The position numbers were made by a program, and so were the translations under genes. Below the pieces are notes generated by a model that saw only the letters and a list, made by a program, of their open reading frames with translations, did not search any database and had not been told where the DNA came from. A stretch of 64,000 nt of DNA from the IMG/VR virus record IMGVR_UViG_3300036762_000188. One strand, 5' to 3'. Position 1 is the stretch's first letter; each line of letters starts with the position of its first letter. This stretch comes from a virus (taxonomy: Duplodnaviria > Caudoviricetes). Below are positions 26,751 through 55,421 of this stretch, in pieces.

Positions 26751-27385
26751 GTTAGGTCCTCTATAGACATTATATTTGAATTGGACTCGGTTATCTTCTC
26801 AAGTTCTAGTAGAAGCTGTTCCTCTGCTTCATCCACTTCAGGCTCTATATCAGTAAGTTGTTTAATAAGTGCAGAAGCGTGTTTAGACCAGTGACGGGCC
26901 TCTTTAGAAGCGTCCGCGGTATTACCATTAAAAAACGCCTCTCTACTACGATACACCGCATCGGCGCATAACTGTGCTAGAATAGACGTTTTATCATAGT
27001 CAGGCAACAGACCCATACGCCATGTGACGAAGGGCAGGCCTGCTGATAGGGCCCACTTCTTCATCTGTAACTCCGAAGGATCTCCTATAGTGGCTATATG
27101 AGCCACTACATGTATCCTAGAGAGATCGTGCACCGAGTAGTACAGGTCGTGATACAATTGGATTACCTCTAAAGGTAGTCCCATCAGGTCGGATATAGCG
27201 TCTAAGTCCTTAGTGGCTATCAAAGATGCTTCCACGTAGGTCTTGACTAACTTGTCCCTACCCAGGTTTGTGACTTCTTCTACCAACTCTTTAGGTATAG
27301 TACCGTCTAGTATATCATCCACTAAAGGATCCTTACCTTCAATACTTCTAGAGAGTAACCAAGATCTATATCCGACGCTACTCAT
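26747..27385 (-). CDS. Hypothetical late protein
   Basis: 212-aa ORF coupled to both neighbours. Confidence 0.65.
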   Translation of the reverse strand: MSSVGYRSWLLSRSIEGKDPLVDDILDGTIPKELVEEVTNLGRDKLVKTYVEASLIATKDLDAISDLMGLPLEVIQLYHDLYYSVHDLSRIHVVAHIATIGDPSELQMKKWALSAGLPFVTWRMGLLPDYDKTSILAQLCADAVYRSREAFFNGNTADASKEARHWSKHASALIKQLTDIEPEVDEAEEQLLLELEKITESNSNIMSIEDLT

Positions 27386-29151
27386 GCAGCCACCAGAGCC
27401 TTTAACCTAACGTAAGAATTACCTAGATCTTTAAATGTATTACGGATAGAAGTGACTAGTGTAGATATCTCGTCAGAGCTAAGCCTATCGGATAGCTTAC
27501 TAGTATTCAATCTTACTAACAGTAGAGTGCGCCCTAGTTTATCAACCGCGTCTCCTATGTCAGGTATGTACTCAGATATAGTACTATCCATATCCGTGTT
27601 ACAAAGTATCTGGGCTATAATACTAGCCTGCACTACCTGAGGGTCTCCGGTGTTAACTGCAGACCTTACGGTGGCCATACCTCTGTCACGATCTTCTTTG
27701 TTACCAGTCACTGCTACTGATGGCTGTGGAGTAGCTCCGTACGATACTATAGGTGATGGTGATGTAGAATTAGGTCCTATACCTGCCATTTTAATCATAG
27801 TGATACCTTTAGAGCGTACACTATCCATTAAAGAACGGGCTTGATCAACCGGCATAGCCCAGCGTACTACACTATGCTCCATCATCTTGACTTCAGGACC
27901 TATCTCTTTACCATCAACAGCGAATACACCATCACGATGCATTATAGTTGCAGAGTATGGCAGTACCATATTCTCTAATCTGTTATGGTTAAATTGAGCC
28001 TTGTTAATATCAGACTCTAAGTCCTGTATGTAATCGCCCTTTACTAATACAGCAGCGGCAGTGGATCCTAGATATACAGTATCTCCTATACGCTCATACA
28101 AGGTCTTGATATCCGGAGAACAGACTATAGTATAATCCATACTAACTATACGCACCCCGCGGTTAGTCAGAGTTACCTCGACAACGTCCATGGGGGATAG
28201 GTAGCGCAATCCCGTGAAGGGTACTATACGCTGCCCTCTTACAACTCTATCTAGCGGTACTATAGTATTTCGGCTAAGTACGTCTGGACTCTCAGTACGA
28301 GCGTAGCATACGAATTTATGGAGGTCTCCGCAGGATACACGTCCGTCTTCAGATAAGTATGCTGATTTATAACCCCTTTCCATGGGTAAGCGCATTACAC
28401 CTAAGCCACGACCTTCTATATCTACTGCTATAGTGGAATCGCCTTCGATCATAGCCTGGCTATAAGTAAACTCATCACGATCTTGGGATTCTACCATTAC
28501 TACAGGTATAGTACAGGGATGGATTACAGTGTAACCGTTAGCCAGAACTTCCTGCTTCTGCTCTTCAGACAGATCGCCTTCACTTACTACTTTAGGTATA
28601 GGCTTAGCGTCTGGAGTAAACTCCATATCATCTTTACCTAGAGCTTCTTTAAGATCTTCCACATCCAGGAACTCTGATAGTTCATGGAGGGTATCCTCTG
28701 ATATACCAGCGGATATGTACTGGCGCATACTAGGTGGTAGTGCATCTATAAGTGAGGTTAGACGACTAGACGCGTATACGAACTTACCAGTGCGTGGTGG
28801 TACCACAGCTTCTAGAAGTGACGGATTCTTCTCTACACCTATAGGCGTATCCACGGCGCATCCCAGAGAGAAGTCCTCGTCTAGTACCTTACGGATTACG
28901 TCTTTAGACACGGGTAGGAATTTAGTACCATCATTCTCATACATAATACACTCTATAGGGAATACTACAGTGCCCTGTCCGATAACAGGTATGTACATAA
29001 TGCTGTTCTTAACTTTAACCGTGAAGATACCCATATGGGTATCGGTATCTTCCGGTGATTCATCGGATACATCTGCGAAGGTAGTCACATATTGACTAAG
29101 CTCTGGCAGTTGTTCACTTAAGCGCTTAGTGGCTATAGTAGTGAAGTTCAT
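27382..29151 (-). CDS. Large putative head protein
   Basis: 589 aa, first gene after a class B motif; IKMAG site. Confidence 0.55.
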   Translation of the reverse strand: MNFTTIATKRLSEQLPELSQYVTTFADVSDESPEDTDTHMGIFTVKVKNSIMYIPVIGQGTVVFPIECIMYENDGTKFLPVSKDVIRKVLDEDFSLGCAVDTPIGVEKNPSLLEAVVPPRTGKFVYASSRLTSLIDALPPSMRQYISAGISEDTLHELSEFLDVEDLKEALGKDDMEFTPDAKPIPKVVSEGDLSEEQKQEVLANGYTVIHPCTIPVVMVESQDRDEFTYSQAMIEGDSTIAVDIEGRGLGVMRLPMERGYKSAYLSEDGRVSCGDLHKFVCYARTESPDVLSRNTIVPLDRVVRGQRIVPFTGLRYLSPMDVVEVTLTNRGVRIVSMDYTIVCSPDIKTLYERIGDTVYLGSTAAAVLVKGDYIQDLESDINKAQFNHNRLENMVLPYSATIMHRDGVFAVDGKEIGPEVKMMEHSVVRWAMPVDQARSLMDSVRSKGITMIKMAGIGPNSTSPSPIVSYGATPQPSVAVTGNKEDRDRGMATVRSAVNTGDPQVVQASIIAQILCNTDMDSTISEYIPDIGDAVDKLGRTLLLVRLNTSKLSDRLSSDEISTLVTSIRNTFKDLGNSYVRLKALVAA

Positions 29152-29174
29152 AGTTTTCTCCTGTTAACTGAATA

Positions 29175-29181
29175 TATTTTA
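29175..29181 (-). promoter_or_regulatory. Class B promoter motif TAAAATA
   Basis: About 24 nt upstream of 29151; overlaps the stop codon of the RNAP beta'-C gene. Confidence 0.55.
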
Positions 29182-30990
29182 GTACTTACCATCTGCACCA
29201 TCCCCGAAGTTACGACCCATAATATAAGCCGCTATAGGATCTGTAGAAGATATCTCCGCAGAATGTCCTTCAGCTACACCAGTCTTTAGAGTACGCGCCT
29301 GGTGGCCCAATGTTAATTTAGAAATCCAATTATCATCGTAGAATTTGACAGATTTAAGACCTGGCACTATAGCCTCTGTGGTAAGACCCGATTTACTGAT
29401 CTTAACTTCCTTGACGCCGTGATTAAGTAAGTACTCTATATGGTTATTATCCATCACAGTACCTGGTGTTAACTGCAGGTACTGCTGTGCTAACTTACTA
29501 CCTATAGAGTTCTTAACGTCTACAGTGGCAGTGTCTTTAGTCAAAGCATCTTGTATAGCATTTACCGTAAGTACCTGTCCTGATAGATAATCCGTGTCAC
29601 CCGGGTTTTTAACTCGCACGTGCTTGATTACATTCTTGGCTACTATTTCAAAATGTCTTTTATCTAAAAAGTTACCAGAATCCTCGTAGATGCGGTTCAT
29701 CTCCTCTGATATGTATTTACGCCCGTCACCGGTACCGCGTAAAGATACTAACTCACGAGGATCCGTAGTACCGCCAGATAACTGGTCGCCGATACGTATA
29801 GTGTCTCCTACACTAACTCTTAGGCCTCTAGTGCGCGGTACGAAGTGCTCTACTCCGTTAACGAATACCTTGTTATCTTTAAGAGAAGTCTCGGTTATAT
29901 CATTGACGGTGCCATCTACTTTGGATATAGTCGCCTTATCCAAAAACTTCTGAGGGTTAGTAAGCAGGTTACTGACTAGGTCGAACGGGTTTGACTTCTT
30001 ACCAGCCTTAGCATCATGCTTAGTACCTAGTACCATCTGAGTCAGTACTTCTGATACAGACTGAGACGCTATCACACCGACGTTCTCTCCTATATCAGGA
30101 AGATGTCCCCGGGAATCTAATCCGTAGCACTTCTGACACACACCGTCTTTAATCGTACAGGTCATAGGAGAGCGTACTACAACAGTCTTCTTACTACCCT
30201 TAAGATCGCTCCAACGCGCCTCATCTATTAATACGTTAGTACCAGCTTCATATCTACCTATGATACCACGCTTATCATCTATCTTAACAGGTATACCATT
30301 GGAAGTACCACAGTCATGAGTGATAACCACCTCTCTCATAAGATTAGGAGTGATCTGCTTAAACATATCTCCAGGCTTAGATGTAGCTAACTGTGCCGCT
30401 ACAGTATTACCCCTACCCCAATAACTCATAGCCAGCTGCTGTGCTGGAGTAAGTCCCTCACTATAAGATTTAGTGATAGGTAGTGGTATAGGAGTCTTAT
30501 CTATACGCTTGGATATTAACGGAGTGGACGTACCCTGCATTAATTGGTTAGGGTTACCACGAGCTCCTGTCTGTGCCATCAAAGCTGCTGTACTACCGTT
30601 ATTAAGTAAATGACTTAAGTTCTGTGTATTTAGCAGTTTCTCATAGTCATGAGTTATCTCGTTAATACGGTCATCTTTCTTAGAGCGTTCCATGTCTGAG
30701 GATTCTACTCCGTCTATCTTGGAACTGAATTCCTTAATAAGTGCTGCGCGATCTTCTGAGTCGTTCAAGTAGTCTGCTAGAGGTGTAGAGAACCCGTTTA
30801 CAGTAGCTTGATGAAAAAACTCTTTAGATATGTTAGATATAGTTGTACCAGCGTCTTTACCACCGTGGGTGATGATAGATGCCATCAAGTCCTTAACACC
30901 GCCTTTGTCTAACTCTACCTTAGGATCGTAGTAAGGCTTAACTGAATCAGGCAGCATATGCTTGATCTTTATAGATCCTGCAGTAATCAT
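29179..30990 (-). CDS. Phage RNA polymerase beta'-like subunit, C-terminal half
   Basis: TGARGN, SYSEGL, bridge-helix-like ATSKPG, DCGT, RSPMTC, VCQKCYG, trigger loop GENVGVIASQSVSEVLTQMVLGTKH, DKRHFEIV. Confidence 0.9.
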   Translation of the reverse strand: MITAGSIKIKHMLPDSVKPYYDPKVELDKGGVKDLMASIITHGGKDAGTTISNISKEFFHQATVNGFSTPLADYLNDSEDRAALIKEFSSKIDGVESSDMERSKKDDRINEITHDYEKLLNTQNLSHLLNNGSTAALMAQTGARGNPNQLMQGTSTPLISKRIDKTPIPLPITKSYSEGLTPAQQLAMSYWGRGNTVAAQLATSKPGDMFKQITPNLMREVVITHDCGTSNGIPVKIDDKRGIIGRYEAGTNVLIDEARWSDLKGSKKTVVVRSPMTCTIKDGVCQKCYGLDSRGHLPDIGENVGVIASQSVSEVLTQMVLGTKHDAKAGKKSNPFDLVSNLLTNPQKFLDKATISKVDGTVNDITETSLKDNKVFVNGVEHFVPRTRGLRVSVGDTIRIGDQLSGGTTDPRELVSLRGTGDGRKYISEEMNRIYEDSGNFLDKRHFEIVAKNVIKHVRVKNPGDTDYLSGQVLTVNAIQDALTKDTATVDVKNSIGSKLAQQYLQLTPGTVMDNNHIEYLLNHGVKEVKISKSGLTTEAIVPGLKSVKFYDDNWISKLTLGHQARTLKTGVAEGHSAEISSTDPIAAYIMGRNFGDGADGKY

Positions 30991-31175
30991 GTATCCCTCC
31001 TAGGGGCACCTGTAGGTTTAAAATTTACGGGCATACCTTTCCTGGCTACAAAAGCCCTGCCAGTGCCCTTCTTTACGTCTACGCCTTTACGTGTTAATAA
31101 GCGTGCCGGTTTATGTACTTGCATAGTCTGGTCTGCGTATGATCCAGATGCTCTTATCTTAGATATCAAGCTCAT
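30987..31175 (-). CDS. Small basic late protein
   Basis: 62 aa, Lys/Arg-rich, overlaps both neighbours by 4 nt. Confidence 0.55.
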   Translation of the reverse strand: MSLISKIRASGSYADQTMQVHKPARLLTRKGVDVKKGTGRAFVARKGMPVNFKPTGAPRRDT

Positions 31176-31345
31176 ACTCGTCTGTTCCTAGACTCTCTCC
31201 ATAGCTTAGATACTATAAATCTCTTAAAAGCGTTCTTACTGACCCCATGGTTTACCACTACACCTACAGCGGGGCGTAGCTCATCGTACACGTCTGCTTG
31301 TTTAAGCATACGTGCCTTAGAGGCAAGCTCTTCTATCCTATTCAT
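31172..31345 (-). CDS. Small late protein (57 aa)
   Basis: AAGGAG RBS; MNRIEELASKARMLKQADVY...; not in the ORF track. Confidence 0.6.
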   Translation of the reverse strand: MNRIEELASKARMLKQADVYDELRPAVGVVVNHGVSKNAFKRFIVSKLWRESRNRRV

Positions 31346-31374
31346 AACCCACTCCTTTGGCTATCTATAATAGG

Positions 31375-31381
31375 TATTTTA
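31375..31381 (-). promoter_or_regulatory. Class B promoter motif TAAAATA
   Basis: About 30 nt upstream of 31345; heads the operon containing the beta'-C gene. Confidence 0.55.
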
Positions 31382-31455
31382 GTGTAGGTGTGTAATAACA
31401 TCGCTTTGCATAAGCATCCTATACACTTCTTAAAGTACATTAGCTATGGTATTTT

Positions 31456-31466
31456 GGTTATAAGTA
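31456..31466 (+). promoter_or_regulatory. Class A promoter motif
   Basis: GGTTATAAGTA about 26 nt before ATG 31493. Confidence 0.65.
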
Positions 31467-31492
31467 CTATGTACATAAATTAGGAGTATACC

Positions 31493-31828
31493 ATGAATAA
31501 AGTAACACTGTTAAAAGAAGCCGTCTCTTTGCTAGAGGAACTTCAGGCCCAAGTGGCTGATTACGACCGTACTATTGAGTTGTTAATATCTGAGGGTAAG
31601 GAGGTAGAGAATAAGATCAATACTCTTAGCAGTACTCTACCTAAAGTCATACGAAAGAGCACTAAGTTGAGCCCTTCACAGTTAACCTCTTCAAAAGAGA
31701 GGGAGGGGTTGCTTGTGAGTAAGGTGGTATGGGATGCTCACTTAAAAATGTGTATGGAAGAACGCGTTACGTGTATAGATATGCACGACCGTGTCTATAC
31801 ACTAGCTGTAGTGAAATGCTGCTACTAG
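31493..31828 (+). CDS. Hypothetical coiled-coil protein
   Basis: AGGAG RBS, own promoter motif and terminator. Confidence 0.7.
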   Translation: MNKVTLLKEAVSLLEELQAQVADYDRTIELLISEGKEVENKINTLSSTLPKVIRKSTKLSPSQLTSSKEREGLLVSKVVWDAHLKMCMEERVTCIDMHDRVYTLAVVKCCY

Positions 31829-31843
31829 TGTGTGGATATTATA

Positions 31844-31869
31844 AGGGTTGATTCGTCAACCCTATTTTT
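31844..31869 (+). terminator. Intrinsic terminator
   Basis: AGGGTTGA-TTCG-TCAACCCT-ATTTTT. Confidence 0.75.
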
Positions 31870-31902
31870 AAACCTGTACAATTTTATAGTCGGAGACGTA
31901 TT

Positions 31903-32766
31903 ATGTTAAGTGAGAAACTTGAAAAACTGTTTACGCACTGTACCGCACCTTTAACAGTGTTAGATCAGTACATTAAGAAGGGGCTGTCTGGTCAAGGATG
32001 GGGCCCTATAGAGGGGGTGGATGACTATTATATAAAACAGGTGGAGGCAGCGGTAACGCTATACCGTGTGGATTTGGAAAAAAGTACTTCAATATGTATA
32101 AGATTCCATAATGATAGTGCTAATATCATAGGGATTCGTAACAAACTTATAAGGAGTGGTCTCTCCAAAAGTACTAGTGACTCGCTAGTATCCGGTGCAT
32201 TGGAGAATGACGAGTGGGCCAATTTACTTACAGTGTGCGATACCCTGGGGATAGATACTGATGAACTAATGAAGGGTTATGAGGAGAATCCTATACATGA
32301 GTTTCAGTACGACATCGAACCTTCAAGTGATGAATTCGAGGAATTTTCAAAGAATGTAATACCTTCTTTGAATATGCCGGTGGAAGAGGCGATCATCCTC
32401 TTGAAGAGGGCAGTTGAAGAGGATGACCTAGAAACATGGAAAATCCTAGTGGATAACGGAGGACCGCTACTCGAAAAGTTTCGCATGATTATACAGGTGG
32501 CACGCGAGTACTACAATTGTGAAATAAATCTGTACAATGGTAGACTTCCTGATATCAAAGGACTAGATGATATTATAACGTCTATGATAAGACCGACTCT
32601 AGGATCCTCAATAACGGAGACTATGTTAGAGAAAGCTATTTACCATGGAGATGTTGGTATAATAGAACCCCTGTGCACTATGGCAGGAGTGGACTCGGCA
32701 CTACGAGCACACATCCTAGGACGGGTTTCAGATAACAAACCTGACGTAGTCTTGAAGCTGAAATAG
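31903..32766 (+). CDS. Hypothetical protein, paralog of 33165-34031
   Basis: Shared KKG..G.GW, W.NL...CD.LGI, NP..E..YDI.P and W.ILVD.GG.LL motifs. Confidence 0.75.
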   Translation: MLSEKLEKLFTHCTAPLTVLDQYIKKGLSGQGWGPIEGVDDYYIKQVEAAVTLYRVDLEKSTSICIRFHNDSANIIGIRNKLIRSGLSKSTSDSLVSGALENDEWANLLTVCDTLGIDTDELMKGYEENPIHEFQYDIEPSSDEFEEFSKNVIPSLNMPVEEAIILLKRAVEEDDLETWKILVDNGGPLLEKFRMIIQVAREYYNCEINLYNGRLPDIKGLDDIITSMIRPTLGSSITETMLEKAIYHGDVGIIEPLCTMAGVDSALRAHILGRVSDNKPDVVLKLK

Positions 32767-32794
32767 CATCGAATGGGGGCTTAGGCCCTCATTC

Positions 32795-33147
32795 TGTTAC
32801 AAAAGCCTTAAGAAATGTAACACGTTTGTAACACCCTAATTCCAGTAATGACGCGGCTTTTTTTAGATTTGTTACAAAAAAACATTGTTACATAAAATAA
32901 TACACATACTATGAGAGAGAGAGGGAGAGGGAGGAATGTATATATAAATACACTATATAAGAAAAGTGTGTTTTTATATATAGGCCTCTCCCTCTCTCAT
33001 AGTATGTGTGTGTTCCAGTGTTTCTGTGTTTTCTGTAACGACTCCTCCTCAACCCGCATAGAAGCTAGGATCCGGCGTTACACGGGTGTTACAGGATTAT
33101 GTTTTAATAACATCTATGTTATTTAATGTTATAAGTACTTTAGTACA
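32795..33147. repeat. 353-bp dispersed direct repeat, copy 1 (palindromic, TGTTAC/GTAACA iterons; candidate origin)
   Basis: Near-identical to 55049-55401; 18-bp perfect inverted arms at 32902-32919 and 32992-33009. Confidence 0.9.
33127..33137 (+). promoter_or_regulatory. Class A promoter motif
   Basis: TGTTATAAGTA at the right end of the repeat. Confidence 0.65.
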
Positions 33148-33164
33148 TTAACTAGGAGTATAGT

Positions 33165-34031
33165 ATGAACAAATTAGCTGAGCTAATCCAAGAAGCCTTA
33201 GAAAATTGTGAATCCGTAGACGAACTTGATGAAGCGCTTAAGAAGGGGTTTGCAGGGGACGGCTGGGACGACGTACCGGGAGTAGACCCTGTTACGATGA
33301 AAGAGTTATCACTAGCGGTTTTAGCTGACCGCCTGTGCACACGTAGTACGAAGGAGATGTGTATTAAATTCGGGAGTAACACCCCGGCTATAGACGCTGT
33401 TTTAAATGGTATGGCGGCGGCAGGTCTAAGTCCAACGGAGTGCAACGAGCTGTTAGGTACGGCACTAAAGGATTCCAGCTGGGTTAACCTCCGCGTTATA
33501 TGTGATGGGCTGGGGATTAGTGGACTGGATGCTATGATAGCTAGCTTAGAGGCTAACCCTTTAAGAGAGCTATCATATGATATCACTCCCGTTACTAATG
33601 GGTTAGATAGATTTGTTAAAGGTATAATACCTGCAGTGGGTCTACCTATATCCCAGGTAGAGCCTTTGTTACACGCTGCGGTAGCTGGTGACGAGAGCGC
33701 CTGGCAGATACTAGTAGATAAAGGAGGGGAGCTTCTCTCTGACTTCAAATATTTAGTATCCAATATGAAATTGCAGGTATCTGGCTCCCTGAGCCTATAT
33801 GATGGCGTAGTACCATCCCTGGATGATCTTGATGAATTACTCCTTGCCCTTATAGACCATGAAGTACCCCCTGAGACAATATCAGGATTAATTAGTCTAA
33901 TGGCTATTACCGGTAGTATGTCCGAGGTAGAGTCGTTATGCGCGGCCTTAGGGATAGACGGCGGGGTAGTTCGGATAGCCGAGCGTTGGGTCGCGGGTAA
34001 CCGTCCCGCTATAACTCTTAATATACAGTAG
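33165..34031 (+). CDS. Hypothetical protein, paralog of 31903-32766
   Basis: 288 aa, colinear similarity along its length. Confidence 0.75.
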   Translation: MNKLAELIQEALENCESVDELDEALKKGFAGDGWDDVPGVDPVTMKELSLAVLADRLCTRSTKEMCIKFGSNTPAIDAVLNGMAAAGLSPTECNELLGTALKDSSWVNLRVICDGLGISGLDAMIASLEANPLRELSYDITPVTNGLDRFVKGIIPAVGLPISQVEPLLHAAVAGDESAWQILVDKGGELLSDFKYLVSNMKLQVSGSLSLYDGVVPSLDDLDELLLALIDHEVPPETISGLISLMAITGSMSEVESLCAALGIDGGVVRIAERWVAGNRPAITLNIQ

Positions 34032-34073
34032 TGCTACATTAGCGCCGGCCTACGGGCCGGTTAGGATATTATA

Positions 34074-34529
34074 ATGACTGTAGAAAAGTGTTTTGAAAGA
34101 ATACTGATTGATATAGCGTCTGGAGACACTATCGTGTCTCTAGAATCCTTCATAAACGGATACGCCGCCTTAATATTAAACGGTGATTACTCTGATCTAC
34201 AGAGTTCTCTACCATCGAGTTCATTAGACGAGGTAATAGAGTGCACATCCGGTAAGAGCCCCGCGGAGATACATAGTGAGGCCGGTCCAGTGATGGATAA
34301 TGTGCTGGACATGTATCTAAGTACTAACCTAGTAGATATCGTAGGGAATTATAGACGCGAGCTAAGAGAGGTAAGCTACCAAGTGAAGAATAAAGGCCCT
34401 CTCACGGCGGCCACTCTACTCAGCAACACTAACGGGGATGATCTAGTTAATGGACTGAAGGCTAGTGTAAATGAGTACCAGGATAATATAGCATCCTTAC
34501 TAACGTCTATAAGGGCTTACAATGAGTAG
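34074..34529 (+). CDS. Hypothetical protein
   Basis: 151-aa ORF. Confidence 0.65.
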   Translation: MTVEKCFERILIDIASGDTIVSLESFINGYAALILNGDYSDLQSSLPSSSLDEVIECTSGKSPAEIHSEAGPVMDNVLDMYLSTNLVDIVGNYRRELREVSYQVKNKGPLTAATLLSNTNGDDLVNGLKASVNEYQDNIASLLTSIRAYNE

Positions 34530-34920
34530 CCCTCTAGCCGAAGTACTCCATGGGATCAGCACCTACGGAGTATCGCTTAGCAAGCTGGCGGCCGACCTCA
34601 TCATCGTGTCCGGCGGATCTCTACCCGCTGATATAGAAGATCGCTCTCTTAGACTTCAGTCGTTCTACCGGAGTATCTTAGGGGATCCACAGGATCCTCT
34701 TATAGAGGACCTATTATACCTGTATAAGTCTGGATGTATCCTGAGTAAAATCATGGCGCAGGCCGAGAACATGGTGAATTATCGAGCCGATGACGTAGCT
34801 AGCGCCTATACTCTTGCTGATGACGAACTACGCGGCTTACTAATTAAGCGTGATAAGGAGTTATTGGTAGGTACTATAAACGATATAAATGAGATGCTGG
34901 AGGAGCTGGAAAACTTGTAA
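34522..34920 (+). CDS. Hypothetical protein
   Basis: 132-aa ORF coupled to the previous gene. Confidence 0.65.
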   Translation: MSSPLAEVLHGISTYGVSLSKLAADLIIVSGGSLPADIEDRSLRLQSFYRSILGDPQDPLIEDLLYLYKSGCILSKIMAQAENMVNYRADDVASAYTLADDELRGLLIKRDKELLVGTINDINEMLEELENL

Positions 34921-34935
34921 CTTTCGACCTCCTAG

Positions 34936-34972
34936 CGGTTATAAGTATAATGTACAGACTTATAATTGGAGA
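34936..34972 (+). promoter_or_regulatory. 37-bp class A promoter plus RBS cassette (copy 1)
   Basis: CGGTTATAAGTATAATGTACAGACTTATAATTGGAGA; internal TTATAAGT/ACTTATAA inverted repeat. Confidence 0.7.
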
Positions 34973-34977
34973 GACTC

Positions 34978-35307
34978 ATGGAAAACCGAATGACGAACCG
35001 AATGGCGTACATACAACACTGCTTGATAAAGGCGGCCATAGCAAGTGGAGTATCTGAGTACGCCCTAGCTGAGCTAGTCGATCAGATGCAAACTGGGGAT
35101 TGGAGTGGGTTAGAAGGGATTAAAGGGGCAGAGGCTCAGGTGGCGAGCCTTAAGGAGTATTACGAAGACAATGGGGTCCCTTATAACTCCTTCACGTACC
35201 TGCCGACCTCTGCATCTCTGCTGAATAGAGACGAGACCCTGAAGAGAGCTGAGGGTGTAGTATCTCCTGAATTTATAGAGTCTATGAAAAGACTCTGGAA
35301 TTACTGA
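34978..35307 (+). CDS. Hypothetical protein
   Basis: ATG 34978 follows a GGAGAG RBS. Confidence 0.65.
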   Translation: MENRMTNRMAYIQHCLIKAAIASGVSEYALAELVDQMQTGDWSGLEGIKGAEAQVASLKEYYEDNGVPYNSFTYLPTSASLLNRDETLKRAEGVVSPEFIESMKRLWNY

Positions 35308-35317
35308 AGTTGTAATT

Positions 35318-35342
35318 AAAGTAGAGCCTAGCTCTACTTTTT
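35318..35342 (+). terminator. Intrinsic terminator
   Basis: AAAGTAGAGC/GCTCTACTTT stem plus T run. Confidence 0.7.
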
Positions 35343-35353
35343 AGCCTCACCAA

Positions 35354-35390
35354 CGGTTATAAGTATAATGTATAGACTTATAATTGGGGA
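35354..35390 (+). promoter_or_regulatory. 37-bp class A promoter plus RBS cassette (copy 2)
   Basis: Two mismatches relative to 34936-34972. Confidence 0.7.
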
Positions 35391-35395
35391 TAGAA

Positions 35396-35803
35396 ATGTT
35401 AAACATGCTAATGGAAGTACACCGTATCAAGGCCTCTATGGCAGTTACCTTCCCGCAGGGGGTGAACGATATGAATAAGTTCGCTCATCTCGTGATTAAC
35501 GAGGAGGTAATACCGGATCGTAAGATTCGAGATACACAGCGTAAGGTAGATGCCCTTAACCACCTGCTAGATGCGTGTAGGATTAAGAATGGGAAGGAGT
35601 TGAAGATGAGCCAGACTATGTGGGCTCATGTCAACTCGGAAAAGCCTAAGGGCTTAACTATGATACTTAGAAAATTGGTTTGTGAACACTTGGGGGTGAA
35701 GAGCCACCCAATCACTCCTAAACGGATACTCGAGCTATACGCAGAGTATCCGGAGGATCGGGTGATCTATAACGTAGCCCGAGCTATCACGCTGCTCGGG
35801 TGA
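35396..35803 (+). CDS. Hypothetical protein
   Basis: ATG 35396 after GGGGA; 3' end overlaps the RNAP gene end. Confidence 0.65.
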   Translation: MLNMLMEVHRIKASMAVTFPQGVNDMNKFAHLVINEEVIPDRKIRDTQRKVDALNHLLDACRIKNGKELKMSQTMWAHVNSEKPKGLTMILRKLVCEHLGVKSHPITPKRILELYAEYPEDRVIYNVARAITLLG

Positions 35804-38800
35804 TTTGAACCGGAGTATCCTCGGAGATGGTACCGGCTGCTAACGCGGCTAGTACCTCTTCCTCGGATGAAAAGACTACGGTCTTTTTATCTGACGGACG
35901 GGTCATGTACACAGATCCTAGAATAGCCTCATGACCAGGGGCGTACATAGGACTGCCGAATCCCTTACGGGCGTCGTGCAGATGGTTAGAAGGCAACAGT
36001 TTCTCGTTAGCCTCTTTTATAGCCTCTGGAGTAACCGGTACGTGCATACTCAAGGCATCACCATCATAATCCGCTGCATATCCTGGTAGATGCAATATGT
36101 TAAGACCTATAGTCTTACCTGTAGTAGGTATAGGCTTAAGGGCTAGAATGTTAGTTTTCATAAGAGTAGGAGCACGATTAAGTATAATCGGTATTTCCTT
36201 GATAACCTTATTGAAACTACTTACTGCAGCCATATTACGATCTTCACACGCTTTTTTAGCTGCAGCAGGATTGTACCCCTTCTGAGCTAGGTCACGCTTG
36301 ATATGCATATCGTACATAGTCCACAGCTGTTCCGCCGGGATCTTAACTTCATCAAACCCTAGGTCTGGCGCTGCGTAAATAGTACCGCGGCCTGACATAT
36401 CCTGCTTACGACTCAGTAGCTTAGACTGGAAGTAACCGGTCTTAGGACCACCGTCACCGCCTATCTGTTTCATCAGGCCTTTAAGATGTTTATTCTTAAA
36501 GCGAACCGGCTCTCCCGCAGCCATAATAGCCTTGGCAGCAGAGTAGGTATCAGCACGTGCCTGTTGCAGAGTAGGGAAGCTATGATCGTATAGATCTTTA
36601 TTCTTATCTACCCCATCGTTAACCAGATATAGATCCTGGTACAGACTGTTAACGTCCGCTACTACTGCACGCCCCTCATTGACAGATATAGGACGCATCA
36701 CCGGAGGTATAACTGGTATATTACGTAGCAGTACTGCGCTACTTAAATCCTTAAACCCCTGTTTATGCAATCCATGTAAAGCCTTGATACGCTTGATGAT
36801 ATTATTCTTAGTGGATACAGCCTTGGTAACCTCTAGCTCTCGCGTAAGGGCCGCTATCTCCGCCTCAGGGTCGATATCATCCAGCATCTGCTTAAAGGCT
36901 TCCCCGCCTATAACAGCTTCATCACTAGCCGCCTTAGTCATACCGGCGTTAACGTGGATAGAACGTACTAGCTTCTCAGTATCACTATCGAGTATATCGA
37001 AGTTACCGGAACCTTTACGCTTAACCATGTACTTACCGGATACTATGTTATCGTACTCAGCCTGTTTAAGACCTAGTATGCTAATAACCGTGGGCTCTAA
37101 CACCGGAGATACTATAGACTCTGATAGAGGTAAGTGTGACCACTTAGTACCGTCTATACCACCGGTCATACCGATATCGAATAGGCCACCTTTACTGGTA
37201 CGTGCGTCACTGCCCTGAAGCATCTTAGTGTTCCTCAAGGCGCCACTGCTCATAGACAGTATCTTCTCGTCTGTCAGTGGTGCTAGCGTAAGTCTACCGT
37301 CTCGCTGAGACACTTCTATACCACTACCTTTCAGATAGTCGAAGAACTTCTGAGTGGCGAAGGTAGTAGAAGGTTTAGGTAGAGGCTTACCTCGTATAAA
37401 CTTATCCCAGTAGTCGCCTTGCTGTGATAGTTTACCACCCTCCGCCTTAATAGTAGCCATTTCCTTAAGGTTACTACGGGCGTTAGATCCTAGAAGTCCT
37501 AAGAACTCCATATATCCTACTGCCTTAGCACCCTCTTCACCACCCTTAGTAGGCTGCCCGACGTTATCATACTTCCCTGTACTACGGGCGAAGTAGTTAG
37601 CGTCTACCGTCTTATCTAACTTAACGATATACTGAGGTCCTGCGAATACCTTACTACCTATAGTCTTACCTGTCTTAGGATCATAGATCTCCTCGGTATC
37701 AGATAGTCCGCGGTCAGCTAGCTCTTTCTTAAGCGTGCCGATGTTGCTCGCGTTCTCATAGTTCTTAACCATGTAAGGCTTACCGTCGTGCTTAGCGATC
37801 TTAGCAGCTACGGTCTCCATGATCTGGCCTAGGTTAATACGCGAGGTAACAGACGCAGGGTTAAATAGTACGTCTACAGGCTTACCCGTCTCTCTACTAT
37901 GAGGCATCTCATGATCATCTAGGATCAGAGATACGATACCCTTACCGCCGTGGAAGTTGGTTATCTTATCCCCTTCGACTAGACTCTTCTCAGAACGTAC
38001 TATAATACGTATGTTCTTACCGGTCTTGTCTATGTCTACTATCTCACCTAACTCCTCGTGATCCCATATAAGGCTAGCGTCGCGATATTTATTTACCAGT
38101 GTCTTATGCAGACGTCCTAGTAGCATATCCATCTCGCTCACTTCCTTTTCTTCCAGGATAGGCCAGATTATATCACCCTTATGCAGTACACGGCCTTTAG
38201 CCGGAGCTCCATCCCTGGCCAACCCTTGTAGTTGCTGTGGAGTATACTTACGACCGAATTGACCTCGGAAGGTCTCAAGGTCTAGTACAGTCTTATCCCC
38301 TGCACTATAATCAAACTTGTAAGCGTGATTACTTATCATAGACTCCGCTGCAGAGCGGCTTAGCACTACGGCGTCTTCGTGGTTAAACCCTTCATACGGC
38401 ATATAGGCGATATGTAGGTTCTTACCTAAAGCCAGTACACCATCCTTGGTATAATTATTGTCTGCTATAGTCTGCCCGGCCTTTACACTATCTCCCACCT
38501 TAAGATGTGTAGGCTCGTCGTCGTGAAATCCCTTCATGTTAAAAGGTAGGTTATCCACTAGACTTACTTCATGGTTACCTTCCGCTCCGCGTATAGTAAC
38601 CTTCTTAGGTTCTACTTTAACCACCACGCCGTCTACCGGTGACTTAGTGGTGAATACACGTGCTAGACTCTCTGAGAATGAACGGCCTTTACTATCCACG
38701 GTCTGTACTAAAGGAGCCTCACGATCCCGTAAACTCAGAGTCTGTGGAATAGCTTTACCCGCCATGGTTAAACGTCCAGGGTGGTCACTATTAAGGAAAG

Positions 38801-40319
38801 GCACTAAATTAGTAGTAACCGTATACATGTCAGATCCCGCAGGGATCCAGTAGTCTACGTGGCTACGTGGAACTTTCTTAAAATTACCATTAACCTGAGC
38901 ATGTACCTCATCACCATCATCTCCCGGGAATCCGATAGTATGTTCGCCCATCTCCTTGGCTGATAGGTACACTATCTTACCGTTATTATCCTTAACTCTA
39001 GCATACATGTTACCATCACGATCGCGACGCGAAGTCATGGTGAACCGCAGATCGATACCTGCCATGTCAGACTCAGGAGTACGTGACGGATCTAATATGC
39101 CAAGGTGGCTAGGATCGACGTTACGGGCTTCTGAAGGCACTCCCTGGGCACTACCTATACCACCATAGCCTGCACCGATGATCGTGGCCTTACCGACGTT
39201 CTCCATCGATTCTATAGGGTTAGTCTCTGTCGGTGTAGACGATAGACTAGACTCAGTAATAAACGAAGAGAACACTTTGTTGAAGGGCTTGGCGCCGATC
39301 AAGTTACGTATCTTAAGCGTATCTGGGTTAGCCGGGTTGACACGTCCTAGAGAACGAGCCATGTTCTTAACGGTACCTGTAACGCGTAGGTTACCTTTAC
39401 TGAAGTGAGACGATATAAAATCTGGTAGATTCTGCACTTTCTTAAACTGCAGGCTATCACGGTTATCCTCACCTCTATCACCTCTATGAGTATCTACTAG
39501 ATTCTTCATAGCGCGAAGTATGGCTTCCTGGCTTACATGACTGAAAGAAGCACCTAACGTTATCTCTGTAGTATCTACATCCAGTCTGGAGGCTTCCAAA
39601 GCCTCTTTAAGCGCTACCGTCTTCTCTTCTATAGAAGCATCCTTATTCTGCTTCATGCGGTTAACCATCTTAGAATATAAAGATGATATAGCACGATCAG
39701 CCGGCTGATTCTTATTAGCAGCGATAACGTCGTCAGGTAGATATCTCTTAAGATCTGAGTCGGTTAGCCCGAAGCAACGGATCATAACAGGTATCAACGG
39801 TACGCCCACAGATTTAGTGCTACCAGCACGTATGTTAAACTGTAGACTCTCAGGGTCTAACACGATAGAGAAACCGGAGCCACTATTAGTGTTAAACTCA
39901 CTCTCCACCTCTCCGTTCTCACGACTGTGCAAGTATACACCTGGTTTACGTAGGATAAGGTTGGAGACGTTATAGTTATTACCGCGGTACACTATAGTGT
40001 GCTTACCTGTCATAGCGTAAGTATCAGACAGGTTAAAGTTCTTAACCTTATCAAGTACCTTCCCGGTATTCTTATCGGTCAACGTCATAGTACCCTTGAT
40101 AGGGTAGGTCAAAGACTTACTCTTCAGAATAGCCTCTTTCTCGTCTGCATGACCGAACTCTTTTTTAGCGGCGTACACATCACTGACGTCTAATCTGTAG
40201 TTATTATCCTCTACAGGGAACGTGGACATTATACCACTTATCATAGCCTCATCAGTCTGATCATTTATCTCAGCAGGAGAGGCGAATATAGGGGTTAGTT
40301 CACTCGGATCTTTCGGCAT
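35787..40319 (-). CDS. Phage RNA polymerase: beta-like subunit fused to the N-terminal half of beta' (catalytic DxDGD)
   Basis: Beta motifs RNVDPSHLG..TPES, LVPFLNSD, LALGKN..GFNHED, GDKITNFHGGKG, SRINLGQ, ARSTG, QPTKGG; beta' motifs GGLFD, IPVIPPVMRP, DMSGRGTI, LNRAPTL, YAADYDGD. Confidence 0.92.
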   Translation of the reverse strand: MPKDPSELTPIFASPAEINDQTDEAMISGIMSTFPVEDNNYRLDVSDVYAAKKEFGHADEKEAILKSKSLTYPIKGTMTLTDKNTGKVLDKVKNFNLSDTYAMTGKHTIVYRGNNYNVSNLILRKPGVYLHSRENGEVESEFNTNSGSGFSIVLDPESLQFNIRAGSTKSVGVPLIPVMIRCFGLTDSDLKRYLPDDVIAANKNQPADRAISSLYSKMVNRMKQNKDASIEEKTVALKEALEASRLDVDTTEITLGASFSHVSQEAILRAMKNLVDTHRGDRGEDNRDSLQFKKVQNLPDFISSHFSKGNLRVTGTVKNMARSLGRVNPANPDTLKIRNLIGAKPFNKVFSSFITESSLSSTPTETNPIESMENVGKATIIGAGYGGIGSAQGVPSEARNVDPSHLGILDPSRTPESDMAGIDLRFTMTSRRDRDGNMYARVKDNNGKIVYLSAKEMGEHTIGFPGDDGDEVHAQVNGNFKKVPRSHVDYWIPAGSDMYTVTTNLVPFLNSDHPGRLTMAGKAIPQTLSLRDREAPLVQTVDSKGRSFSESLARVFTTKSPVDGVVVKVEPKKVTIRGAEGNHEVSLVDNLPFNMKGFHDDEPTHLKVGDSVKAGQTIADNNYTKDGVLALGKNLHIAYMPYEGFNHEDAVVLSRSAAESMISNHAYKFDYSAGDKTVLDLETFRGQFGRKYTPQQLQGLARDGAPAKGRVLHKGDIIWPILEEKEVSEMDMLLGRLHKTLVNKYRDASLIWDHEELGEIVDIDKTGKNIRIIVRSEKSLVEGDKITNFHGGKGIVSLILDDHEMPHSRETGKPVDVLFNPASVTSRINLGQIMETVAAKIAKHDGKPYMVKNYENASNIGTLKKELADRGLSDTEEIYDPKTGKTIGSKVFAGPQYIVKLDKTVDANYFARSTGKYDNVGQPTKGGEEGAKAVGYMEFLGLLGSNARSNLKEMATIKAEGGKLSQQGDYWDKFIRGKPLPKPSTTFATQKFFDYLKGSGIEVSQRDGRLTLAPLTDEKILSMSSGALRNTKMLQGSDARTSKGGLFDIGMTGGIDGTKWSHLPLSESIVSPVLEPTVISILGLKQAEYDNIVSGKYMVKRKGSGNFDILDSDTEKLVRSIHVNAGMTKAASDEAVIGGEAFKQMLDDIDPEAEIAALTRELEVTKAVSTKNNIIKRIKALHGLHKQGFKDLSSAVLLRNIPVIPPVMRPISVNEGRAVVADVNSLYQDLYLVNDGVDKNKDLYDHSFPTLQQARADTYSAAKAIMAAGEPVRFKNKHLKGLMKQIGGDGGPKTGYFQSKLLSRKQDMSGRGTIYAAPDLGFDEVKIPAEQLWTMYDMHIKRDLAQKGYNPAAAKKACEDRNMAAVSSFNKVIKEIPIILNRAPTLMKTNILALKPIPTTGKTIGLNILHLPGYAADYDGDALSMHVPVTPEAIKEANEKLLPSNHLHDARKGFGSPMYAPGHEAILGSVYMTRPSDKKTVVFSSEEEVLAALAAGTISEDTPVQITRAA

Positions 40320-40581
40320 CTACCGGGTTCCTTTCTAAATAGTTTATTACGCATGTATAAATGCCAGTGTTCGGAGATATGCTCTCCTTCCTGCTCATTA
40401 TTACTATATCATTAGATCCATCGACGCCTCGAGTTAACAATCTCTCTAGTGCCATCTGATCGTCATCGTTATCAGTACCTAGGCGATATAGATTTATACG
40501 GGCTCTATAACCCGTAGTACTAGACGTATCTATGCCCTGCGCAAGCATGTCGGGCATTAAATCATTCATCTCCATTACCAT
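40300..40581 (-). CDS. Hypothetical late protein
   Basis: 93-aa ORF between the portal and RNAP genes. Confidence 0.6.
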   Translation of the reverse strand: MVMEMNDLMPDMLAQGIDTSSTTGYRARINLYRLGTDNDDDQMALERLLTRGVDGSNDIVIMSRKESISPNTGIYTCVINYLERNPVDAERSE

Positions 40582-42229
40582 CTCCTTGTATAAGGCTCAC
40601 TACCTCTGCGAACATGGCAGGATTATCGTGTTTCAGTTGTATAGCCATCTTCTGCTGTTCTTCTGGAGTAGCCTGGGATAATTTCTGCGCTAACTTGACT
40701 ACCTCAGCACGGTGTTCCTTATAGCCGTTATCATCCTCTCCATCATCATCACTTTGATTGGCCTGGAATGTAGCACGCTTAACAGCCTCTGCAGTGCGGA
40801 CAGCCTCTTCAGCCTTATGTACAGCCTGTTCCCTTAATCTAGATTTGATCTTATCTGGGTCCATACCGAATATCTCTAGTACGGTAGTCTCGTCTATAAG
40901 GTTATTATCTAGCATGCTAAGATACATCTGCTTAAGATTATCATTATCTGTCAATTCGAACGGTACTAAATCTACATCAAGTTTTTCTATGTCCAGGAAA
41001 TTAGCTATTTTAGAATATATCCAATCCAGCGTGTTACGTAGCTTACGAACGTACTGGTTCATGTTATTCTCTAATAGTCGCAGACCTACCGTAGAACTAG
41101 TCCAGTTAGTAGTACCACTAAGCAGCTCCCTACTCACGCCCTGGCCCATAAGCAACTGCTCTTCTGCGAACTGAAGCTCGTTAGTCACTAGTAGTGATTT
41201 ACCCTGGCCTCCCATATATCCTACACCTATAGGTATAGGGCTTAGTAGTATGTGGTTAGGGTCTTGCTTAAACTTCTGCAAGTTAGTCTTCATAGCCGCG
41301 GTGAAGTTACCCATAGACATAGATGCTATAGGATCGGCGTTAGCAGAGCCTTGCTGAGGGTATATCATCCTCATAGGGTTCATATGCTCCAGCGCTATAG
41401 ACTCGTTAGCCTTACGTAGGCACTGCATATAGAATACCGTAGAGTACATACTTAGTAACGGAGGTACTCCGAAGCCTGGTATAAGATCTCCCATAGATAA
41501 CCCCTTAAGGTGGTATACCTCGTCCTTAGCGAACATGAAATCTTTATTCAGTCTGATAGCATCTATAAAGCCCATGGGCATAGTGCATATAAAGTGCGGG
41601 TCTCCCAGTATAACCTTACGTTTAACATCACCCGGTATAGTATAGTAGTACTCGCTCTCTCCTGATATAGGATTCTCATTTACCGCTATATGGTCCAACT
41701 TCCATTTAATAATGTTTATACGCGATATATCTCTACTACGCGTATCTTTAACTTTAAACACTCCGGTCGTGTGACATGACGGACACGTACCGTGGAACCC
41801 GAATTTAGTCCACTTGACCTCTTTACCTAACGAAGTACGTGCGTTAATAAGATTCTCACACTCTCTACATTCTAGCATGCGCTCAAATGGGTAATATATA
41901 GATAGGAATGCGTTACCGTGGGCAGAGTAATCAAAACCTGCGTCGCTAAGCTTCTCTATGACCCTTACGCTATCCGTAATTTCATTGTACTTCTTACGAA
42001 GAGATTCATTGTTAGTGGTATAACTCACCTCCGTCATAGGGTACGTAGCCATCTTACGTAGCACTTCGGTTACAGTAGGCGACTTTATAAGAATGAATCT
42101 GGTCTGCTTTAGCAGATCATGGAAGTTGCGTGGTATGAACTGAGTACTAACGTCGTAAGACGGGTTGGCGTAGGTGCCTAGGTCATATCTACCGTATAAC
42201 CCTCTTGTATCTGTCCTAGAGCCAATCAT
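40562..42229 (-). CDS. Putative portal protein with Zn-ribbon insertion
   Basis: 555 aa; portal-like DYSAHGNAF, EVYHLK..PGFGVPPL, GVSRELL; CxxC...CxxC insert; first gene of a late operon. Confidence 0.65.
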   Translation of the reverse strand: MIGSRTDTRGLYGRYDLGTYANPSYDVSTQFIPRNFHDLLKQTRFILIKSPTVTEVLRKMATYPMTEVSYTTNNESLRKKYNEITDSVRVIEKLSDAGFDYSAHGNAFLSIYYPFERMLECRECENLINARTSLGKEVKWTKFGFHGTCPSCHTTGVFKVKDTRSRDISRINIIKWKLDHIAVNENPISGESEYYYTIPGDVKRKVILGDPHFICTMPMGFIDAIRLNKDFMFAKDEVYHLKGLSMGDLIPGFGVPPLLSMYSTVFYMQCLRKANESIALEHMNPMRMIYPQQGSANADPIASMSMGNFTAAMKTNLQKFKQDPNHILLSPIPIGVGYMGGQGKSLLVTNELQFAEEQLLMGQGVSRELLSGTTNWTSSTVGLRLLENNMNQYVRKLRNTLDWIYSKIANFLDIEKLDVDLVPFELTDNDNLKQMYLSMLDNNLIDETTVLEIFGMDPDKIKSRLREQAVHKAEEAVRTAEAVKRATFQANQSDDDGEDDNGYKEHRAEVVKLAQKLSQATPEEQQKMAIQLKHDNPAMFAEVVSLIQGDGNGDE

Positions 42230-42259
42230 AAGATTCTCCGGTTATTATTGAGTATATTC

Positions 42260-42266
42260 TATTTTA
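42260..42266 (-). promoter_or_regulatory. Class B promoter motif TAAAATA
   Basis: About 31 nt upstream of the portal start. Confidence 0.6.
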
Positions 42267-42315
42267 CATTTTAACGCCGTACTAGGCTATAAGCAAGTAG
42301 AGCCTAGGAGGGTTT

Positions 42316-47012: not shown

Positions 47013-47783
47013 TTAGCATAGTATTTCAGCTAATCGCTTTATAGAATCCTCTTTCATAGCTTTCAGTGCAGCCTTACTAGTATCCGGATACATATCCTGC
47101 AGCTGTGAGTAAGATAGTCTTTTACCCTCTCTAGTCAATCCATGTAGCGACAAAATCATATCCGCATCATCACCGTATTCAGAATCTATAGCGGAGTAGA
47201 GATCATTAACTAAAAGTTCATATTCTAGAGTTTTCATACCTTCCATGGTAGGCATCTCATCCTCCCCTACACTGTCCATGTAGAAGGTTAAGAATGCAGT
47301 ACCATTAAGTTCCCTCAAGTCTTTTTCACTACAGTCAGGTAACTGTTCCTTTAATTCATCCATCGATAATGATTGAGAGCTCTCATCTTTTAGACGTTTA
47401 ATCTTAACTGACAGTTGCTGCTTCTGAGTAGGTAGACTAACTAGTCTGAACTCAGACATCTGCTTCATCTGTCTTTGATATACCCACCAACCGGCGTAAG
47501 TCAGGAATCTCATACCTGACTTATGATCGAACTTCTCAAGCCCGACGACTAATCCTTCATTACCAGCAGAGATAAGCTCGATGAACTGCTCTGTGTCACC
47601 TTTAGATAGTAGCTTAGCTCTCTTGAACACGAAACGCATGTTACTGGATATAAGTCTGTGCTTAGCACTTTTTTTAGCTGACTCGCTATCACTCTCGAAA
47701 TACGTAGTGAGTAATTCTAATTCCTCAGCCGCGGTAAGTATAGGGAACTTGCATATGTCTGCGTAGTAGTTGCTTAAATTCAT
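47013..47783 (-). CDS. Sigma70-family RNA polymerase sigma factor (regions 1.2-4)
   Basis: Region 1.2 YYADICKFPILTAAEELEL; region 2 LISSNMRFV, LISAGNEGL..LEKFD..GMRFLTYAGWWV; true start is probably ATG 47783. Confidence 0.88.
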   Translation of the reverse strand: MNLSNYYADICKFPILTAAEELELLTTYFESDSESAKKSAKHRLISSNMRFVFKRAKLLSKGDTEQFIELISAGNEGLVVGLEKFDHKSGMRFLTYAGWWVYQRQMKQMSEFRLVSLPTQKQQLSVKIKRLKDESSQSLSMDELKEQLPDCSEKDLRELNGTAFLTFYMDSVGEDEMPTMEGMKTLEYELLVNDLYSAIDSEYGDDADMILSLHGLTREGKRLSYSQLQDMYPDTSKAALKAMKEDSIKRLAEILC

Positions 47784-47824
47784 AGTGAATCCGTAGTTAA
47801 TATCTATTGACTTAAGTATCACAT

Positions 47825-47831
47825 TAAAATA
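47825..47831 (+). promoter_or_regulatory. Class B-like motif TAAAATA on the plus strand
   Basis: About 31 nt upstream of ATG 47863. Confidence 0.4.
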
Positions 47832-47862
47832 TGATAATATCAAGTACCTATTGGAGATTATT

Positions 47863-48042
47863 ATGATAAAGGTAGAGTTAACTAAGTTAGACGGTGTAAT
47901 GCGTTTAGAGTTCACTAGTAATAAACCGGATGATCGCGATCTATTAGATACCATCGGTAACCTAATACTATGCAGTAACCCTAAGAGAGGTAGTTATGAA
48001 GGTGACGTTATGATGGTGGACATTAAAAATGGAAAAGTCTAG
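47863..48042 (+). CDS. Small hypothetical protein
   Basis: GGAG RBS before ATG 47863. Confidence 0.55.
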   Translation: MIKVELTKLDGVMRLEFTSNKPDDRDLLDTIGNLILCSNPKRGSYEGDVMMVDIKNGKV

Positions 48043-55401: not shown

Positions 55402-55421
55402 CTTAAAACTAGGAGTTAAGG

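Follow-up and report, generated by a model that had tools for sequence, protein, structure and literature searches.

The window analysed here, 64,000 nucleotides (nt) of DNA from a tailed phage (IMG/VR record IMGVR_UViG_3300036762_000188), carries on its minus strand two open reading frames (ORFs) of 1510 and 603 amino acids (aa), found at 35787-40319 and 29179-30990, respectively, whose products correspond to the bacterial RNA polymerase subunits beta and beta'. A first-pass annotation of the window had described these ORFs as an unusual split, in which beta is fused to the N-terminal part of beta' (beta'-N) and the C-terminal part of beta' (beta'-C) is a separate chain encoded about 4.8 kb away. 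The record proved to be the complete 148,929-bp genome, with direct terminal repeats, of an uncultured phage, and window positions 753-64000 correspond to positions 1-63248 of its contig. In this complete genome beta and beta'-C are each present at a single locus (for beta'-C, the only PF04998 locus), and the RNA polymerase that they encode is the only recognisable one of the virus and is made as two proteins. A search for a T7-type polymerase (PF00940) gave no match, with controls that were themselves unable to match that family, and megablast of positions 29000-41000 against the phage collection returned no near-identical phage DNA.

Results

The fusion of beta with beta'-N, which brings both double-psi beta-barrels onto one chain and leaves beta'-C as a separate one, was borne out by Pfam, by alignments to solved structures and by a residue-level MAFFT alignment. 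In the 1510-aa ORF, Rpb2_6 (PF00562) was matched at aa 620-926 (1.6e-56) and was followed by Rpb1_1 and Rpb1_2 within aa 1166-1439, and a phmmer search of the Protein Data Bank (PDB) aligned aa 24-1006 with a whole cyanobacterial beta (31-1039) and aa 1134-1475 with residues 177-516 of E. coli beta'. For the residue-level alignment, the window chains were concatenated and set against the corresponding pairs from Arash and from D69, six relatives of the single-chain type, the enzyme that phage YerA41 encodes in three genes, and beta plus beta' of Salmonella, E. faecalis and S. aureus. In it, the end of a compact beta (…GIEVSQRD) passes without a linker into beta' from about residue 13, and the chain then runs through the clamp helices and the Mg-binding DxDGD loop, and on for about 90 residues more.

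The same alignment turned the apparent loss of the beta' N-terminal zinc (Zn) domain, also noted in the first-pass annotation, into a clean 32-residue deletion. The four-Cys Zn ribbon is absent in all fused-family members aligned, whereas YerA41 and the three bacteria keep it. The catalytic loop does read YAADYDGD as reported, with D1417, D1419, G1420 and D1421 invariant in 66 relatives. Its first Ala occupies the position of N458 in E. coli beta', an Asn in cellular enzymes that contacts the substrate ribose; Ala is found there also in 60 of 165 relatives of the split type, while the single-chain relatives mostly have Asn (NADFDGD). In the beta part, the alignment has S, T, N, K and T at the places of the rifampicin-pocket residues Q513, D516, H526, R529 and S531, respectively. 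Because three of these five positions are classical resistance sites when changed, the enzyme is predicted to be insensitive to rifampicin.

The 603-aa ORF matched Rpb1_4 and Rpb1_5 (beta' domains 4 and 5) and aligned, against solved structures, with beta' residues ~620-1100. The elements that had been assigned to it were all located, namely the bridge helix, the second (C-terminal) Zn site with its four Cys and a short trigger loop (TQMVLGTKH), and the chain has no SI3 insert. The break between the chains, with …PVQITRAA closing the first and MITAGS… opening the second, falls in a surface loop that corresponds to E. coli beta' ~553-571. When the joined window chains were compared to 79 single-chain relatives, the gap at this place minus the expected gap was ~0 to -1 in most; as the residue count is the same where the parts abut, the split appears to have essentially neither removed nor added residues. 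An Rfam scan of 28500-42500 gave sub-threshold chance matches and no intron, so that no intron bridges the two polymerase genes, and according to the alignment neither chain has surplus terminal residues from which the halves of a split intein could be formed.

Genes for alpha (PF01000, PF01193, PF03118) and omega (PF01192), reported as missing from the window, were not matched in a six-frame Pfam search of the complete 148,929-bp genome either, with positive controls. There are, on the other hand, two genes of the sigma family. The product of the one in the window, in which region 2 is recognised (region 4 is recognised in its relatives), is 44% identical to Arash gp196. Its first ATG would yield 313 aa; since the protein has ~256 aa in the database gene call and in all relatives, translation probably begins at the Met at 47783, which gives 256 aa. 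The second gene lies outside the window, among virion genes, and encodes a 238-aa protein with a weak match to Sigma70_r3 that is 42% identical to gp10, a virion protein of Arash.

Four records of the phage collection matched the 1510-aa ORF end to end, and each has a separate beta'-C gene. Identity is 62% for Vibrio phages D69, D148 and D181, and 55% for Salmonella phage Arash (OQ632216; PMC10585845), where the two chains are gp206 and gp216. Over the full length, the members of this two-chain group are thus 55-62% identical to the window enzyme, and they share with the window phage the Zn-ribbon deletion, the AADYDGD loop, the split point, the order of portal, small ORF and fusion gene, and homologues of both sigma-like proteins (Arash gp10 and gp196). 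They differ in carrying unrelated cargo in the spacer and in having genomes of 181-187 kb, against 149 kb. In the published records their chains are called "beta", "beta-prime" or "hypothetical", and neither the fusion nor the split is described (for Arash, PMC10585845). Unlike the window gene, those of D148 and D181 are interrupted within their beta part by a group I intron (RF00028, 100.7 bits, at 7533-7813 of L013 in D181, and the same in D148). This intron is followed by a homing-endonuclease gene and causes no further gene split; the D69 gene is uninterrupted.

In large protein databases, more than 100 clusters with lengths of 1450-1600 aa show the same succession of domains, on contigs of up to 187 kb, and the fused-and-split layout is found in more than 130 metagenomic clusters. 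A profile search, run exhaustively with the junction and the beta'-N part as query (~4,700 matches), revealed a second architecture, that of single chains of ~2000-2100 aa that are matched in mid-protein and in which beta' runs to its end. These single-chain beta::beta' proteins of uncultured phages, such as P0126 on L005, have the same joint and the same Zn-ribbon deletion, are 33-40% identical to and collinear with window chains 1 and 2, and differ from them in having no break in beta' and in mostly keeping the Asn of the catalytic loop; one such gene lies in a phage-like contig. When 268 relatives were fetched, in a sample drawn by similarity to the window protein and not exhaustive, and were sorted by their matching parts, 165 stopped just after beta'-N and 79 were complete single chains. 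Intein domains occur in many relatives within this gene family. Two relatives that seemed to be unfused, stand-alone beta' proteins (P0125 and P0204) proved to be incomplete sequences truncated where their contigs end.

A FastTree phylogeny of 178 sequences, spanning the C-terminal part of beta through beta'-N, showed a single change of state between the split and the single-chain architectures. In a second version, which included bacterial outgroups, the fused family formed one clade (support 99), divided into a split clade of 130 sequences (support 97), with the window phage, Arash and D69 among them, and its sister, a single-chain clade of 50 sequences (support 89); YerA41 was placed outside the fused family. 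Judged from this sampling, the fused-and-split layout is the hallmark of a large clade and is not peculiar to this phage. The first-pass annotation, which had proposed a distinct and compact two-chain architecture, was thus right about the layout and not about its singularity, as 130 of 180 sampled relatives form a clade that has it. Given that the sister clade has a one-chain enzyme, the split probably represents a single secondary fission of a single-chain ancestor.

The two polymerase genes belong to separate minus-strand operons (Table 1), and Arash, D69, L014 and the P0080 contig keep the same succession, in which the portal gene is followed by a small ORF, the fusion gene, a variable spacer, beta'-C and a virion-protein gene. 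The operon that ends in beta'-C opens with two small ORFs, the 62-aa one of which is found at the same place in D69 and D181. In the window, the gap between the two polymerase genes measures 4,796 nt and holds eight plus-strand ORFs and the two small minus-strand ones. These figures agree with the earlier description of about 4.8 kb of mostly opposite-strand early genes, with the reservation that "early" can draw only on the promoter-like motif that the spacer genes share, so that they may be considered putative early genes at most. The distance itself is not a fixed feature, given that the spacer is 0.65 kb in D69, 1.9 kb in the P0080 contig, where it includes a primase-polymerase gene, 4.8 kb in Arash as in the window, and 8.5 kb in L014, with unrelated cargo. 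None of the eight cargo ORFs has a Pfam or PHROG match, or a homologue in the spacers of Arash, D69 or L014. The 3' ends of the last cargo ORF, at 35384-35803(+), and of the fusion gene share 17 nt (35787-35803), and there is no terminator-like hairpin between them.

The shared motif, GTTATAAGTA, surfaced from an unbiased k-mer count in intergenic DNA. Eight exact copies are present in the window (at 31457, 33128, 34938, 35356, 42388, 46119, 55382 and 60415) against 0.53 expected by chance, all on the plus strand and four of them in the spacer, and its core, TTATAAGT, is present in 27 copies genome-wide. Of these, 23 are plus-strand copies, the majority of which lie 25-40 nt ahead of a start codon. 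In D69 the motif is likewise on the strand opposite to the polymerase genes, so that its orientation is conserved, and one copy lies in the short spacer. These features make GTTATAAGTA a candidate promoter of one temporal class of genes. It resembles an extended -10 element (TGnTATAA-) but has a G in place of the last T of the -10 hexamer, a conserved base that sigma-70 needs; for lack of this T, we read the motif as one that may be specific for a phage sigma. A scan for the sigma-70 consensus found sites no more numerous than in shuffled sequence. GTTATAAGTA also precedes a tRNA cluster at contig 66-68 kb. A second motif, TAAAATA followed by TATA-like bases, lies 8-30 nt before several minus-strand operons, among which those of portal and fusion gene and of beta'-C, and before the gene that follows beta'-C. 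In the relatives, TAAAATA precedes the D69 operon for beta'-C and, in Arash, stands immediately in front of gp216, gp218 and gp212. We treat this late-type motif as a tentative lead, based on position conserved across phages.

Table 1. Polymerase genes, neighbouring genes and promoter-like motifs; window coordinates unless otherwise indicated.
Feature	Position (nt)	Strand	Remarks
beta::beta'-N fusion gene, 1510 aa (P0001)	35787..40319	-	Pfam, PDB phmmer, MAFFT
beta part, ~aa 1-1007	37299-40319	-	
beta'-N part, aa 1008-1510	35790-37298	-	
Zn-ribbon deletion site, 32 residues, between G1057 and T1058	37146..37151	-	MAFFT
Catalytic loop Y1414-AADYDGD-1421	36057..36080	-	motif alignment
beta'-C gene, 603 aa (P0002)	29179..30990	-	Pfam, PDB alignment; own AGGAGG ribosome-binding site
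Portal-like protein, 555 aa	40562..42229	-	heads the operon that continues with the 93-aa ORF and the fusion gene; 46% identical to Arash portal gp204
Conserved 93-aa ORF	40300..40581	-	homologue of Arash gp205; overlaps fusion-gene start by 20 nt
Two small ORFs (57 and 62 aa)	30987..31345	-	open the operon that ends in beta'-C
589-aa protein just after beta'-C	27382..29151	-	homologue of Arash virion protein gp218
Variable cargo island, eight ORFs	31346..35786	+	
Cargo ORFs 1-4	31493-31828, 31903-32766, 32911-33126, 33165-34031	+	
Cargo ORFs 5-8	34074-34529, 34522-34920, 34966-35307, 35384-35803	+	
GTTATAAGTA, candidate promoter	31457..31466	+	27 nt before ORF 31493
GTTATAAGTA, candidate promoter	33128..33137	+	before ORF 33165
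GTTATAAGTA, candidate promoter	34938..34947	+	before ORF 34966
GTTATAAGTA, candidate promoter	35356..35365	+	before ORF 35384
CTAAAATA, tentative late-type motif	31375..31382	-	30 nt before small-ORF/beta'-C operon
TAAAATAGAATATA, tentative late-type motif	42253..42266	-	24 nt before portal gene heading the fusion-gene operon
sigma-70-family factor	47013..47954	-	region 2 recognised in window protein, region 4 in relatives
Second sigma-like protein, 238 aa	contig 136590-137306 (L015:1091-1807), outside window	-	weak Sigma70_r3 match

Discussion

We consider it likely that the two ORFs encode the two chains of a stripped-down bacterial-type core enzyme, including the virion-delivered and sigma-dependent mode of action that we infer for it. 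That such a polymerase is the best reading of the data is suggested by work on Arash, in whose purified virions Gp206 was the most detected protein (3516 spectra), Gp216 was represented by 1210 spectra, and the sigma Gp10 was also present (PMC10585845). In an enzyme of this kind, the covalent link between beta and beta' would take the scaffolding role of the alpha dimer, and promoters would be recognised by the phage's own sigma-family proteins, the one encoded in the window and the gp10 homologue encoded at 136.6 kb of the genome. Both chains would be made from late-type operons alongside portal and head proteins, would be packed in the capsid, and would enter the cell together with the DNA, there to transcribe phage genes from phage-specific promoters such as GTTATAAGTA without the host polymerase; transcription by the injected enzyme would probably be insensitive to rifampicin. 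The 4.8-kb variable cargo island, in turn, would sit at the fission point of an ancestral single-chain gene.

It is tempting to join all of these elements into one account, which we put forward tentatively and with more doubt than confidence. According to it, the phage would deliver with its virion a self-sufficient machine made of two chains (or of one in the sister clade) and a small sigma, with no alpha or omega since the beta-beta' link replaces the scaffold, which would act on GTTATAAGTA promoters from the first moment of infection and ignore rifampicin. The split would have arisen once, when a cassette of promoter and genes entered a surface loop in the ancestral single-chain gene, and this site would later have become a landing pad for early-gene cargo.

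Several points weigh against the favoured interpretation of a virion-delivered, sigma-dependent core enzyme and its history. Its packaging would be extrapolated from a single proteomics study, made on a relative with 55% identity, while the phage discussed here is known from sequence alone, and the authors of that study allow for the carry-over of abundant proteins in virion preparations (PMC10585845). Because Ala replaces the ribose-contacting Asn of cellular enzymes in the catalytic loop, substrate selectivity may differ. Alpha- or omega-like partners might conceivably be encoded in a form that has diverged beyond recognition by Pfam, and the two sigma-like proteins might act on the core of the host instead of that of the phage. 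As for the late-type motif, the raw count of TAAAATA (as HTAAAATA) is not enriched, with 17 found against 11.2 expected. The direction of change, fission and not fusion, is argued from parsimony, since the root falls between the split and the single-chain clades: with the unsplit and unfused state of the cellular subunits as the starting point, parsimony favours a single-chain ancestor and one fission.

The alternative that fares best is that the enzyme is real but is not delivered by the virion. It would then be made after infection and would transcribe middle or late genes only, and the host polymerase, possibly redirected by the phage sigmas, would read the early genes, those with GTTATAAGTA promoters included. 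Many phages do encode sigma factors that redirect the host core, and the likeness of GTTATAAGTA to an extended -10 element would fit with such use, even though its G at the last T of the hexamer, which is conserved in the sites of sigma-70, argues the other way. The remark by the authors of the Arash study that abundant non-structural enzymes may contaminate virion preparations also speaks for this possibility (PMC10585845). It is harder to reconcile, however, with the finding that in every relative examined the polymerase genes are within late-strand operons of head genes, next to the portal, and with the proteome of Arash virions, where the spectra of Gp206 outnumber those of the major capsid protein and the sigma is packaged as well (PMC10585845). 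On this evidence, we regard an enzyme made only after infection as unlikely.

A different concern is that the split might not be genuine, being either an error of assembly, as considered in the first-pass annotation itself, or of frame, or a break that is mended by an intron, an intein or trans-splicing to give a single chain. The sister-clade enzymes are indeed single chains, and both introns and inteins occur in the gene family, as in D181 and in the many relatives with intein domains. Nonetheless, 165 of 268 relatives, and four isolates that were sequenced independently, have their stop and start at this very position, the two parts are separated by 0.65-8.5 kb of ordinary genes that are partly on the opposite strand, and beta'-C, downstream of two small ORFs, has its own ribosome-binding site. 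Because there is no intron-like RNA between the genes and no room at the chain ends for split-intein halves, rejoining can be excluded, and an artefact of any of these kinds seems to us exceedingly improbable. Just as improbable is that the enzyme is a relic in decay, with its transcription activity lost, for although several normally conserved elements are gone (the Zn ribbon, alpha, omega and the catalytic-loop Asn), the same losses are seen in hundreds of diverged relatives whose reading frames are long and open and in which the Asp triad is invariant and the second Zn site, the bridge helix and the His of the trigger loop are all kept. Moreover, Arash has these proteins in abundance (PMC10585845).

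Comparison with known polymerases shows how the enzyme of the window phage stands apart from them. The enzymes of phages phiKZ and AR9 are also beta/beta' homologues that lack alpha and omega and have a split beta', and one of the two enzymes is packaged in the virion (PMC7598289, PMC7824862). They have, however, departed much further from the bacterial enzyme, with beta in 2-3 pieces and two paralogous sets, and in place of a sigma homologue they use gp68 or gp226 (PMC7598289, PMC7824862). The difference from this type that had been claimed for the window enzyme is well founded, as it has one set, an unsplit beta fused to beta'-N, and genes of the sigma-70 family, and it falls outside the phiKZ/AR9 type on each of these counts. 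The enzyme of Yersinia phage YerA41 (L009, 4535-10599), encoded by three adjacent genes for beta'-N, beta'-C and beta, is of bacterial type and has a split beta' like that of the window; in YerA41, though, beta is unfused, the Zn ribbon is kept, and the split is ~50 residues further downstream.

Tailed phages with recognisably bacterial-type beta and beta' also include the mReC phages and Rhizobium phage RHph_Y65 (beta' of 1127 aa). The mReC definition called for beta and beta' as distinct proteins, each 800 aa or longer, and for NADxDGD in the beta' match (Weinheimer and Aylward 2020, PMC7481178). The window enzyme does not pass this filter, given its AADYDGD loop and a beta' made in two parts, one of which is fused to beta. 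Such filters explain why the one survey of phage beta/beta' genes missed the family (PMC7481178). No description of the fused-and-split layout was found in the literature searched, the searchable literature being incomplete, and the family thus appears to be undescribed in print, even though cultured members are already in GenBank.

In cellular organisms, the gamma/beta' (rpoC1/rpoC2) split of cyanobacteria and plastids comes, as in the window, after the catalytic domain and before the bridge helix. The gamma chains of cyanobacteria align with aa 1134-1500 of the fusion chain, and their break comes ~60-70 residues further on (gamma has ~624 aa, and the alignment ends at ~548). Helicobacter and Wolbachia have rpoB-rpoC fusions in which the C-terminus of beta is joined to the N-terminus of beta'. 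All of these fused or split cellular enzymes, in contrast to that of the window, keep alpha, omega and the Zn ribbon.

With ~2,100 residues in two chains and a sigma of ~250 residues, this would be the smallest natural transcription machine of the bacterial type, and it raises the question of how such an enzyme can assemble and initiate without alpha, omega and the Zn ribbon. Cultured members of the family are at hand to address it, Arash growing on Salmonella and D69 on Vibrio. A compact polymerase directed by its own sigma to its own promoter could possibly serve as an orthogonal expression tool. In addition, the single-chain and two-chain sisters, together with their more fragmented relatives, form a natural series in which polymerase subunits have been cut and joined.

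Additional observations

An element of 310-370 bp is present in four copies in the genome at 94-96% identity, two of them in the window (32794-33160, inside the polymerase spacer, and 55049-55416) and two elsewhere in the contig (102391-102700 and 130731-131039). It contains an ORF of ~71 aa with a start rich in Arg, Glu and Gly, preceded by repeats of the TTGTTACA type, and GTTATAAGTA directly follows two of the copies. A search for a T4-type major capsid protein (PF07068), a trait tied to the mReC phages, gave no match in the genome, with control genomes that were unable to match that family. Near the portal and polymerase block, at 44356-46116(+), lies a gene for an SNF2-family helicase, and an SNF2 gene is found in the same neighbourhood in distant relatives, the P0080 contig and L014.

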